Positions 60,923 to 63,900 of a stretch of DNA of 64,000 nt are shown here, one piece after another (position 1 is the first letter of the stretch; each line of letters begins with the position of its first letter). The stretch is taken from the NCBI RefSeq assembly GCF_056712565.1, contig NZ_CM160072.1, one strand, 5' to 3'. Position numbers: made by a program.

Positions 60923-63900
60923 TCAACCACGCTGAATATCAAAGGAGAGCGTTACCGGTTAAAAGAGAAACGTAAAGCTGTGGTGATGACCCAAAACGCA
61001 ACGCCTGTCAGTGAGGATGAAATGGTGAAAAGCGGACAGCACCAGTAACGGAAGTATCTTAGCGGGTACGAAAATGGCAGGATCGTGACATTGACAGAAT
61101 ATCTCCTGATCATCCTGAATGACTGCAGTTGCTGTGGAAAAGTAAGCTGTCTCCACCCACGGCACGACTTAACAGGCATTCCGTAACTCCCCCAGACTTA
61201 CTATGACGCATTATCGGTGCACTTAAAACCGCAGACCGCATTGCGGGTGTTACTGCATGACAGTCTGACCGTATTGTGAGATGTCGGCAGGAACCGATGT
61301 CCGCGCAGGGGGGAACTTCCTGCAGTACCTGACGCTTCAAATAGTATTAACCGTAGGGCGTTGTTGGTTCCGGATCGCGGAAATGGGAGCACAGGTCTGC
61401 TACGGGGTGTACCTCTGACAGTAAATCCGGCTCGCTCATCTGACAGCCTCTCTCCCGGAAAAGACCAAAAATGAGATCGTCTCCTCAACAGCAGAGAAGA
61501 GGTCTTGACAGACAGGCTACATTGCATACGATTTATGAAGAAAAAGACAGCAAATATGGAGGTTATAGCGGAGAACACCCTACGAAATTCCTATGAAAAA
61601 CGATTGAAAAAAATATCAAATTCGATTCGTTTTTATATGCTTTTTGGGAACGTGGCGATGACGAACTGTTGCATGTGCAGAGGAGAATGCACCCGGAAGC
61701 ACCAGAATCATCCAGAAAGGCAGAACGATTACGCATCAAACCAGGAGACAGCAATATCAAGGTAATACACTGATTTAAAATGAATTTACAGCAATACGTG
61801 AAAACATTTTTTACTTAAAGGAGACAGATGCGCTGAAGAGAGTGCAGGTATTTTTATATAAAAATGAGAAGATTACGGGATATATATCCGGCACACTATG
61901 ACCGGAGAATACCAGTCAGGCTTAAAAAGACAATAAATACAGTGAGTTAAATACACAGAGAAAACGAAAACGTAGTATCAGAGGGTACATCTTACAACAG
62001 AGACTGAATTTCCGGTTTTTCATAACCGGCCATTCCGGAAAGTGCAGGCGGCCCGGAGCTCTTCTGACGCCAGTACCTGCCAGATTGTTCTGTACATTCT
62101 GTACATCATGTACGGAGGTTTTTGTTTGCTTTCTTAAAATCTGCAAATGTGGGAAGAGCAGGTGAGGTGTATTGTGGGAAAGGAACTGGATGATATCTGC
62201 ACCAGCTGTCCGTATATCGATGCTATAAAACGGCACAAACAACAGCTCGGTGCCATAGAGGAATATACACAGTGGTTAAAAAAAGAACCACGGGCATCTT
62301 ATTTTTTTCTGTTCCGGCTGTATACCCGCATTCACAATACATTTTTCCCCAAAAAGCAACAACTCCCGTTCACTCCCGGTGGCACTCACTGCCCGGAACC
62401 TGATGTCACCCTTCGGGACTTAACGCTTTCCCCGGGCTACCACAGTGATTATGCCCCTCAACCCATTCCGGAGATGGACAGTTCTGCTGTTGTTCCCCCA
62501 ACTAATGAAAACACCTCGCCTCCGGAAGATACTCCCGACAACACTCCGGCCGGAGGCAATACCGGACAAGCGGAAAAGACCAGAAACTCAGGACTCACAC
62601 CCATTCCTGAAAAACGTTCAGGAATGCCCCCGGAACATCTGCGGTTTGCCACAGGGTTTCCACCGCAACCGAAGATTGCCGGTCCCAAAGGAAAGCCGAT
62701 GCGCACCGTGCATCCGGATAAAATCTACCGTGAAATTATATGGTTCTGCTCCGGTTACCTGCGGAAATCCGGACCAGAGGCTACGAGGACGATCATCAAC
62801 TCAATATTCTGTGAATGGGCCAGCATCTTCAATGATTACTCCTCCCCCTTTTCGTGGGTGGACAGCAGGGACAGTGAACAGTGTGACTGGTTATGGAACG
62901 CCATGCAGGTCCGGTGTGTGGGAACCCCGCTGAATCCCCTTACCCGGAGCAGAAATACTGGTTCGCCTGCGCCACGTTTGATAACTGGGAAGGCTGGAAT
63001 GAGCAACAGGTACAGTTTTTACTGGAAAGTAATCCCAGACGGAACAGAGCGAAGTTTACGCAGGCCTCCTTCCAGGCCCCCAGGATTCAGCATAAAGCGA
63101 TTCTTCTTGATGAGCTGAAAAGTGCCCGGGAGCAACAAAAAAGGCGTGATGAACGTGCTGATGGTTCCGTCCCGCTGAAACTGTCCGGAAAAATCCACAA
63201 ACAGCTTGAAAGTATTGCCCGAAGTCGTGGTGTCCTCCCAAAAAAACTGCTGAATGAAATGATTGAGCAGGCGTACCAGGACTTTGTGGCAAATGAGCAA
63301 CACAAGACACTGAGTTAAGGACCGCAGGGCCTCCGGTTACCGATTCTGCAGCATACACAACGAATGTGTCCGGCTCTTACCTGTGGGGGCCGCACTAAAG
63401 TTACGCATTGAGTATGAGTGGGTAATCCCGGATGAGAATATCCCGGTTTTTACACTATTCACTGAAGGTGCGACATATCATTCAGTCTCTCTGAATTCTT
63501 CATTTCAGTGGCCCCGGCTACAGTCGTTTAATCTCCTCCACGAACCGGGGCCGCAACTTGTTGTGTCAATACCAAATTGTTGGTCATTACTGTCTTGTGT
63601 CACTGGCGCTGACAAGTGAACTGAAATCCGCACCTTAATATTCTGACTGGCTGCGTACATTCATGGCATGAAGCGGCCGGAGCGGCTGAACTGAAGGTCC
63701 GTTGTGAGCGAACAGCGGACATTCACTACACATGGTTCAAACATGAACCGGAGCTTTATTGTCTAGCTGTCAGTGTACTGCGATTTACCCGCTCGGCTGT
63801 CCAGAAAATCGGTCTGAAATCCAGTCATTAAAGGGCCTTAGCCTGACATTAAGCAACTTGGTAGGCGGATAGATAATAGAAATAGGAATGCGCAGGTCTG

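Follow-up and report, generated by a model that had tools for sequence, protein, structure and literature searches.

A frameshifted genomic-island gene of E. coli and the predicted ribbon-helix-helix protein of its intact form

The window, the whole 64,000-nucleotide stretch of contig NZ_CM160072.1 that was analysed, matches E. coli UTI89 and Nissle-type strains at 99.97% identity, and contains near its end two overlapping ORFs that, by comparison with other genomes, are one gene whose frame is interrupted because a single C is missing. Taken as a whole, we consider it quite likely that this is a conserved backbone gene of Enterobacterales islands of the AlpA/YagK-YfjJ/YeeP type, broken here by the C loss, and that its intact form is a ribbon-helix-helix (RHH) DNA-binding transcription regulator. 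The split itself is ordinary and the gene family only mildly interesting. In the annotation of the window the overlap should be recorded as a pseudogene; a one-base frameshift in a hypothetical gene has little significance for the window itself.

Two ORFs and a single reading frame

The two ORFs were confirmed at 62147-63118 (ORF1, 323 aa) and 62893-63318 (ORF2, 141 aa), with an overlap of 226 nt (63118-62893+1) in different frames (62147 mod 3 = 2; 62893 mod 3 = 1). The original prediction had proposed either one frameshifted gene or a nested gene, of which the former held and the latter did not, as UTI89 and all other complete E. coli genomes checked have one continuous CDS at this position. 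In UTI89, a single 390-aa CDS, WP_000263646.1 ('hypothetical protein'), spans both ORFs, and the sole difference within the gene between the window and UTI89 or the other genomes was the loss of one C in CTTACCCCGGAG. The ORF overlap is no chance feature: other genomes have a single ORF that is otherwise identical, and the overlap results directly from the 1-nt deletion in the window. The features of the gene and its start are as follows.

62174 to 63318, plus strand: the gene, frameshifted here, with its probable true start at GTG 62174 (codon 10 of ORF 62147-63118)
62160 to 62167, plus strand: Shine-Dalgarno-like AGGTGAGG, 6 nt before GTG 62174, read from the sequence
62943 to 62945, plus strand: frameshift site, CCC here and CCCC in other genomes, at codon Pro267 of the intact protein, from the alignment with UTI89 and pARG01 and the whole-window comparison

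The annotation of UTI89 starts at ATG 62147. It is probable that GTG 62174, rather than this ATG, is the true start: homologues begin with MGKELDD or MEKELDD at a GTG or ATG equivalent to 62174, a TGA immediately follows the ATG equivalent to 62147 in pARG01, L013 and L015, and the Shine-Dalgarno-like sequence is kept in pARG01, L003, L013 and L015. The intact protein consists of 390 aa when counted from the ATG and 381 aa from the GTG. The conserved protein is read out of frame in 17 codons at the start of ORF2 and in 57 at the end of ORF1. The product of ORF1 in the window would comprise residues 1-266 followed by the 57-aa out-of-frame tail, and would lack the basic helix and the RHH described below; the gene is most likely non-functional here.

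Apart from the overlap itself, nothing spoke for two true genes that overlap or are nested, or for programmed ribosomal frameshifting within one gene. About 1,980 other E. coli records have a single frame, as do all family members of other genera, no slippery heptamer is present at CCC CTT ACC CGG, and inspection of the sequence upstream of the ORF2 ATG at 62893 found no Shine-Dalgarno sequence. The comparative data refuted this explanation for practical purposes, leaving it a negligible probability.

Cause of the missing C

The single-C loss is probably a genuine lineage-specific frameshift. The three-C (C3) allele was found in 0 of the 1,980 matching records of complete E. coli, and the tract was C4 in every other record, C3 being confined to the window and one contig. 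This contig, SRR32022280 of Logan (978 bp, 100% identical to the window), carries the same deletion and is read-derived, and the frameshift is therefore probably real; it is the only additional contig with the C3 allele, and it may or may not come from a source other than that of the window.

The main alternative was that the source record contains a sequencing or assembly error and that the real genome has the intact 390-aa gene. The uniqueness of the C3 allele among the complete genomes is what such an error would give, and a second single-C deletion, at 34974, has a comparable sequence context, TTAC(C)nGG; it was seen in no other of 1,399 records and likewise splits an otherwise intact gene (a TonB receptor). 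Two single-C losses in 64 kb that otherwise differ from UTI89 by about 10 SNPs look systematic. Against an error, the C3 allele occurs in the read-derived contig mentioned above, and the frameshifted product of the 34974 deletion is present in the ENA metagenome scaffold BAUM18-1_SAMN09260220. Moreover, the strain is clearly distinct, having its own IS3 insertion that was not in any RefSeq complete genome, and private mutations are therefore expected. An error was thus judged unlikely, if still worth weighing. As for the split TonB receptor, its 339-aa C-terminal ORF is not diagnostic, being common to contigs without the deletion of the window.

The original prediction had named three things that would speak against it together, namely a known family, a single continuous frame and a sequencing error. 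The continuous frame was indeed found in the homologues, a named family was not, and an error is the less likely cause in view of the read-derived contig.

A phase-variable (contingency) switch operating by slipped-strand mispairing in the C tract would agree with a one-unit change in the length of a homopolymer. The tract is only 4 nt long, however, and was C4 in all other records examined, making such a switch extremely improbable. A lineage-specific mutation was preferred as the cause.

Predicted structure of the intact protein

No motif had been recognized in the products beyond a Pro-rich low-complexity segment and a basic helical C-terminus. Both of these turned out to be real (the Pro-rich segment at aa ~67-188), and the homology and structure searches assigned the intact protein to no named family. 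Nothing significant was detected for the intact protein or the ORFs in Pfam, NCBIfam, PHROG and PADLOC scans; PHROG matches appeared only at E of 0.08 or higher, and PADLOC (anti-phage defence) gave no match for four family members. There was no match by tblastn against 50,697 phage records and nothing in a PDB search with the single sequence, while the viral structure library and the phage and plasmid records yielded nothing except three plasmids carrying island fragments.

The AlphaFold2 model of the intact protein based on an alignment of 39 sequences reached a pLDDT of 77.6 and a pTM of 0.69; with an alignment of 5 sequences, the pLDDT was 37 and the model unusable. The following regions were distinguished in the model.

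62210 to 62344, plus strand: N-terminal helical hairpin, aa 22-66, with AlphaFold2 pLDDT 85-96 and the conserved motif WLKxxxRA..F
62345 to 62710, plus strand: Pro-rich linker, predicted to be disordered, aa 67-188, with pLDDT mostly below 50
62711 to 63165, plus strand: all-helical Trp-rich domain and long basic helix, aa 189-340 of the intact protein, inside which the frame breaks at aa 267
63166 to 63318, plus strand: C-terminal ribbon-helix-helix, aa 341-390, and stop codon, here only in the ORF2 frame

In the N-terminal hairpin, W43 and R49 are nearly invariant throughout the family. The linker has 10-residue block means of pLDDT of 29-46 over aa 81-150, and is modelled confidently only in a short segment around aa 161-170. 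No other part of the gene diverges as much (44-65% nucleotide identity between E. coli variants), and the linker varies in length within the family. The Trp-rich helical domain, which is specific to this family, had no convincing match in the PDB. At the C-terminus, the model contains a beta-strand/helix/helix unit of about 45-50 residues, as in an RHH. The curated RHH models gave sub-threshold matches, which were PF10723 in 5 of the 39 members (best E 0.02), RHH_7 (0.035) and RHH_1 (0.054), and the RHH sub-profile scored the RHH of MatP at 12.7-13.3 bits when the best of 2,000 shuffles reached 10.7. The assignment as an RHH rests on a monomer model and these sub-threshold sequence scores; it suggests that the intact protein probably binds DNA.

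The similarity to MatP raised another explanation, in which the protein is an island-borne paralogue of MatP (helical bundle plus RHH) that organizes or tethers island DNA and does not regulate transcription. The family profile A4 indeed matched MatP (7nyw_I) with E = 0.0099 over 120 of 151 residues, including the C/G-W-x-W-x-Y motif, and MatP was at rank 2 in Foldseek. The order of secondary structures in the model is also similar to that of MatP, namely helices, a basic helix and then strand-helix-helix. When the larger alignment was used, however, the scores were 10-13 bits, values also reached by shuffled MatP sequences (2,000 shuffles), with 1.6 bits for the helical part by itself. The hhalign alignment covered only the RHH with a probability of 12%, none of the members matched the Pfam models of MatP (PF06303 and PF17414) even at E of 10 or below, and no region homologous to the N-terminal four-helix bundle of MatP (PF06303) was found. 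The modelled protein ends with helix B of the RHH, the C-terminal coiled coil being absent, and no matS-like site (GTGACRNYGTCAC) lies near the gene; the sole near-matS site in the 64 kb, at 24751, is as expected by chance. The MatP similarity was rejected, as it failed the shuffle controls outside the RHH and obtained no support from the structural searches, and we regard a MatP paralogue as very unlikely. Our preferred reading is that the intact protein is an RHH regulator that would bind DNA and control the island backbone, and that it is inactivated in the window.

Island setting, leader region and proposed function

The intact gene is annotated in about 2,096 of 5,426 complete E. coli genomes, so that about 40% of them carry it at a fixed position of the island backbone and with no family assignment, and this applies equally to many Salmonella, Klebsiella, Citrobacter and Yersinia. 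The family comprised 63 representatives at E of 0.001 or below, with Trp motifs conserved at 20-30% identity, and ranged over Escherichia, Salmonella, Klebsiella, Citrobacter, Kosakonia, Yersinia, Serratia, Hafnia, Cronobacter and Vibrio. Every member is annotated as 'hypothetical protein', and our literature search found no paper on the gene and no experimental or annotated function for any member. At every locus examined the gene is within the AlpA/YagK_YfjJ_C module, directly beside those genes in distant relatives. An MMR_HSR1 GTPase module (YeeP/YfjP-type) is directly downstream in most loci examined, an integrase taking its place in the Vibrio locus. The horizontal acquisition that had been suspected was supported: the gene belongs to the backbone of a tRNA-type genomic island, with IS100, AlpA, YagK/YfjJ and cargo on its flanks. 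The islands with the gene carry Ag43, CbtA/CbeA and defence systems. The island of the window carries iron-uptake genes and adjoins the colibactin (pks) genes.

The ORF might instead do nothing for the cell, being a hitch-hiker that is decaying or selfish, in which case its inactivation here would be neutral. The dN/dS among E. coli variants was only 0.4-0.8, and constraint is therefore weak; fragments and products of other frameshifts make up many of the database entries, with 70-aa remnants annotated in hundreds of genomes; and CP4-57 of K-12 has no such gene. On the other hand, the ORF is open in about 2,000 genomes, the motifs are conserved at the low identity given above, the synteny extends from Vibrio to Escherichia, and AlphaFold2 predicted the fold confidently. 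These observations made a hitch-hiker improbable.

The region upstream of the gene had been described as strongly AT-rich with several short direct repeats. It is AT-rich, although moderately and not strongly so (GC 0.36-0.44 at about 61400-62150, compared to 0.50-0.53 on both sides), and the repeats proved to be imperfect two- or three-copy matches of 10-16 nt at the level of chance, giving no signal. The elements recognized in this region were the following.

61505 to 61532, plus strand: sigma-70-like promoter candidate, TTGACA, 16-nt spacer and TACGAT, with 10 of 12 consensus positions
61533 to 62173, plus strand: candidate AT-rich leader or 5' untranslated region, 36-44% GC, from composition
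61596 to 61646, plus strand: early hairpin with T-run, terminator-like, the predicted stem lying about 60-100 nt past the candidate promoter
62088 to 62105, plus strand: tandem 9-bp repeat, two copies of TTCTGTACA, read from the sequence, the one structured repeat of the leader
62097 to 62127, plus strand: late hairpin (9 pairs, loop TCA) followed by GTTTTTGTTT, from a terminator scan, about 45 nt before the start codon

In about 1,955 E. coli records the leader and the gene occur together. A long, mostly AT-rich and gene-poor stretch precedes the gene across the family, measuring about 400-800 bp in distant relatives, in which the equivalent intergenic regions have 30-35% GC, and at least 1.3 kb in the E. 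coli variants. An Rfam scan of 56-64 kb matched no family. A 69/76-aa ORF within the leader was dismissed, as it is not conserved (a 2-nt indel in L014 and L015) and had no Pfam match. The candidate promoter is located in the best-conserved upstream block (89-97% identity to L013/L015 and 79% to L014, with flanks of 50-60%). The early hairpin is conserved in sequence in 6 variants; it exhibited no real covariation and a folding z-score of +0.55, which is not significant, and its terminator-like role is a lead only. The late hairpin was kept in 6 of 6 E. coli variants, including L014, where the arms are altered yet pair (TCTGCCG...CGTGCAGA), and is a candidate attenuator or terminator. The TTCTGTACA repeat together with the following TCATGTACG creates three TGTAC motifs and the palindrome GTACATCATGTAC, and the copy number of TTCTGTACA varies, with two in the window and L003 and one in pARG01, L013 and L015. 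This repeat region is possibly an operator.

We propose that the intact protein would dimerize through its RHH and bind DNA sequence-specifically, regulating its own transcription and that of the rightward backbone operon, of which its gene would be the first (followed by the YeeP-type GTPase, DUF932, WYL regulator, Ag43, antirestriction, RadC and CbeA/CbtA genes). Expression would proceed from the conserved promoter about 640 nt upstream through the AT-rich leader with its two terminator-like hairpins. A bolder and rather doubtful version is that a new family of large RHH proteins is the master switch of AlpA/YfjJ/YeeP-type islands, binding the palindrome or tandem repeat upstream of its own start codon and controlling the rightward operon (GTPase, Ag43, antirestriction and CbtA/CbeA) with its attenuator-containing leader, the Trp-rich domain representing a new fold with a role in signal sensing or partner recruitment. 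If the protein is indeed a backbone regulator, it would offer a route to studying the control of very common and poorly understood islands.

The RHH proteins (CopG/Arc/MetJ) of mobile elements compared here, which were CopB/RepB-RCR_reg (PF10723), the antitoxins ParD, MazE, TacA and FitA, and TraM, are mostly 45-150 aa, whereas the present protein has 380-390 aa and includes, besides the RHH, the helical hairpin, the disordered linker (about 120 aa) and the Trp-rich helical domain (about 150 aa). For these three modules no relative is known, and the gene has no adjacent toxin, replication or relaxase partner. MatP is a core chromosomal protein of 150 aa, and the present island gene product is 2.5 times larger. 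The gene neighborhood corresponds to the CP4-57/CP4-44/CP4-6-type islands of E. coli, whose backbone consists of intA, alpA, yfjI/yfjJ/yagK, the GTPase gene yfjP/yeeP, yfjQ (DUF932), yfjR (WYL), flu, antirestriction, RadC and CbtA/CbeA genes; these neighbors and their order are shared by Escherichia, Klebsiella, Kosakonia and other genera. YfjH of K-12 CP4-57 was tested as a relative and was unrelated. Since nothing of the kind lies between alpA and yfjP in K-12 CP4-57, the gene counts as an optional and so far undescribed member of the CP4-type backbone.

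A gene split by a single-base deletion

The original prediction, in which two ORFs, 62147-63118 (323 aa) and 62893-63318 (141 aa), overlapped by 226 nt in different frames, was confirmed on the sequence, and its frameshifted-gene alternative turned out to be correct. In UTI89, a single 1,173-nt CDS (WP_000263646.1, hypothetical protein, 390 aa) spans both ORFs, and the sole difference in the gene alignment was CTTACCCGGAG in the window versus CTTACCCCGGAG in UTI89 and the plasmid pARG01. These results indicated, at the sequence level, that one gene has been cut into the two ORFs by loss of 1 nt in codon Pro267. 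The first ORF consists of residues 1-266 followed by 57 out-of-frame residues, and the second of 17 out-of-frame residues followed by residues 267-390. The observed event is an ordinary one, a one-base frameshift most likely inactivating a hypothetical gene. The other alternative, a nested gene, was excluded for practical purposes together with programmed frameshifting and phase variation, because only this allele has the two frames, a slippery site is lacking, the second ORF is not preceded by a Shine-Dalgarno sequence, and the tract is merely C4 and invariant elsewhere.

The annotated start in UTI89 is ATG 62147. The equivalent ATG is directly followed by TGA in pARG01 and at L013 and L015, two loci with E. 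coli variants of the gene. Homologues start with MGKELDD/MEKELDD where the window has GTG 62174, a codon preceded by AGGTGAGG with 6-nt spacing, and this GTG is likely the start codon.

Among complete E. coli genomes, 2,098 records matched the region 61400-63400 (2,096 of 5,426 genomes, at most 4 copies each); among plasmids, only three did. The best matches, UTI89, Nissle 1917, ABU 83972, IHE3034 and APEC O18, had "100.0%" identity and covered 2,002 bases against 2,001 query bases. The window allele was not found among the 1,980 records matched by a 101-nt probe over the deletion site; the top matches all showed 99.0% identity across 102 bases and therefore none carried it. Compared with UTI89 across all 64 kb, the window had about 10 SNPs, an additional IS3-family element (42587-43866), a difference of one 8-bp VNTR unit and three 1-nt indels at 62942, 34974 and 46438, the first being the C deletion that splits the island gene.

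Other differences between the window and UTI89
34974 (gene 33894-36041): single-C deletion, TTACGG versus TTACCGG in UTI89, which leaves a TonB-dependent receptor as two ORFs, 33867-35024 and 35021-36040; absent in 1,399 complete E. coli records
46438 (ORF 46058-47272): G6 with an intact 404-aa PfkB-family kinase ORF; G5 in UTI89, whose copy is annotated as frameshifted, the reference being the pseudogene here
42587-43866: inserted IS3-family element, transposase ORF 42598-43503 with rve/HTH_21 domains; both junctions found in no RefSeq complete E. coli genome, which places the source strain outside that collection
25805-25812: one more 8-bp unit (ACAGATAC-type) between clbB and clbR in the colibactin island, a copy-number difference of a short tandem repeat

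A sequencing error was suspected at first, as the two private C deletions (62942 and 34974) lie in alike TTAC(C)nGG contexts. However, a 978-bp contig of the Logan assembly SRR32022280 was 100% identical to the window, missing C included, and the N-terminal product resulting from the frameshift at 34974 was also recorded in one ENA metagenome scaffold, BAUM18-1_SAMN09260220. An assembly error is accordingly unlikely. The contig and the scaffold, along with the absence of the IS3 insertion from RefSeq complete genomes, favoured a genuine lineage-specific frameshift, which is the probable reading. The exact 141-aa product of the second ORF had one database occurrence, on that 978-bp contig.

The AT-rich leader

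The leader proposed as strongly AT-rich was moderately so, with a GC content of 0.36-0.44 at approximately 61400-62150 versus 0.50-0.53 on the flanks. The short direct repeats claimed for the upstream 600 bp were imperfect 10-16-nt matches of the chance type, and the sole structured repeat was a 9-bp tandem, TTCTGTACA x2, at 62088-62105. The leader was compared among E. coli variants with protein identity of just 71-76%. The identity of 61400-61900 to L013 and L015 was 80-97%, higher than in the N-terminal coding part of the gene (83-87%) or in the linker (44-65%), and the most divergent variant, L014, reached its maximum of 79% at 61500-61600. By this comparison, the leader is not junk.

Candidate elements of the leader
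61505-61532: sigma-70-like site, candidate promoter (TTGACA-16-TACGAT), the only good such site, lying in the 61500-61600 block
61596-61646: early hairpin and T-run, conserved in sequence, with no covariation and no energy signal
62097-62127: late hairpin and GTTTTTGTTT, about 45 nt before the start, present in six of six variants

The arms of the late hairpin hold TGTAC repeats and the palindrome GTACATCATGTAC; in L014 the arms are changed with pairing retained. At 61505-61646, the conserved hairpin and T-run come about 60-100 nt after the conserved promoter-like site, and use of both elements would give either an early attenuator or a transcript only about 100 nt long. Upstream regions of distant relatives are also AT-rich (30-35% GC), with short tandem or inverted repeats near the start. 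The ORF within the leader was not conserved among the variants, and an Rfam search of the leader gave no match. The leader would be long and regulated, with a promoter and attenuators, and may hold an operator for the ribbon-helix-helix (RHH) protein described below.

The protein family and its predicted RHH domain

The intact protein had no Pfam, NCBIfam or PADLOC match, nothing below E 0.08 in PHROGs, and no match in a single-sequence search of the PDB. Close homologues occurred in E. coli only, many of the database entries being fragments or products of other frameshifts. Through an exhaustive profile search, 63 representatives were collected, some of them full-length relatives with 17-31% identity. 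Their sources are Salmonella, Klebsiella, Citrobacter, Kosakonia, Yersinia, Serratia, Hafnia, Cronobacter and Vibrio, and every one is named "hypothetical protein". No homologue was found in phage records, and just the three plasmids carried the gene, on island fragments.

Conserved motifs of the family
WLKxxxRA, near the N-terminus
EW...PFSWxD..EQCxWxWxYM
FDxWxGW
KAWxQKxxR
LxxxxxKKLxxLAxxxxxxxxxxLxxLIxxEY, terminal

From 5 sequences, AlphaFold2 gave no useful model (pLDDT 37); from 39, it reached pLDDT 77.6 and pTM 0.69.

Segments of the AlphaFold2 model
aa 22-46 and 48-66: helices
aa 67-188: largely disordered, Pro-rich, pLDDT mostly below 50
aa 190-338: helical domain closed by a long basic helix
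aa 342-347, then 348-361 and 365-389: extended segment, then helices

The Pro-rich segment and basic helix noted originally were both recovered in this model. The products had been thought to carry no other recognisable motif; homology and structure searches altered this for the C-terminus, where an RHH is well supported, and the protein outside it has no known relative. In MatP, Gogy and SSV 56B, the family profile matched the RHH. In Pfam, there were weak matches of five members to RepB-RCR_reg (CopB family) and of single members to RHH_1 and RHH_7, and a 70-aa fragment of the gene is named "Protein CopB" in UniProt. The RHH-only sub-profile scored MatP above 2,000 of 2,000 shuffled controls.

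Six E. coli alleles compared in pairs had an overall dN/dS of 0.4-0.8, pointing to weak constraint. We argue for a functional gene, because motifs, fold and synteny are kept from genus to genus and about 2,000 genomes retain an open ORF.

Island context and comparison with known systems

The gene order conserved in E. coli has, on one strand, YagK/YfjJ, two Zn-ribbon genes and again YagK/YfjJ, and on the other a small ORF, an AlpA-type HTH gene, 200-aa and 71-aa hypotheticals, an old IS21-family remnant and the gene, with a YeeP-type GTPase and Ag43 3' of it, directly or past cargo. In Klebsiella/Enterobacteriaceae, Kosakonia and a metagenomic relative, a divergently oriented AlpA or YagK_YfjJ_C gene lies 400-800 bp upstream of the gene, and the GTPase comes directly after the gene; past the GTPase, longer contigs carry DUF932 and a WYL regulator, together with a varying set of autotransporter, antirestriction, RadC and CbeA/CbtA genes. 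Vibrio diazotrophicus has a shorter homologue between integrase and YagK_YfjJ_C. The gene thus comes first in the rightward backbone module of the islands. The residual interest lies in the family, which is large, island-specific and unannotated, its RHH-containing members occupying a fixed place in a very common island backbone.

Further observations on the islands
57221-57823 (200 aa) and 58297-58512 (71 aa): conserved backbone ORFs between the AlpA-type gene and the gene, with no Pfam family, accompanying the module in E. coli, Klebsiella and others
58654-61048: complete IS100 (istA 59628-60650, istB 58849-59631) within older IS21-family fragments (approximately 58654-58782, 60739-60896 and 60911-61048), an older remnant that other strains (L003) also have, without IS100
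Klebsiella/Enterobacteriaceae island with the distant homologue P0031 (L005-L007), approximately 210-2815: cargo RVT_1 reverse transcriptase beside a PRTase-CE / wHTH-PRTase-associated gene, which looks like a defence-type pair

K-12 CP4-57 lacks the gene, and YfjH, considered as its counterpart there, is unrelated to the protein. Membership of the MatP family was a lead that failed testing. MatP was matched by the family profile A4 (E = 0.0099, 120 residues, helical part included) and ranked second in Foldseek (E 6.3). However, hhalign aligned the RHH alone (12% probability), no family member matched the Pfam MatP models, and with a larger alignment the helical sub-profile gave 1.6 bits and the whole domain 10-13 bits, inside the range of shuffled sequences. 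The AlphaFold2 model had no coiled coil past the RHH, and no matS-like site was found near the gene. The protein is no demonstrable member of that family. It would belong with the RHH regulators of mobile elements, with DNA binding predicted, and may resemble MatP in its working, the RHH being aided by the helical domain and basic helix.
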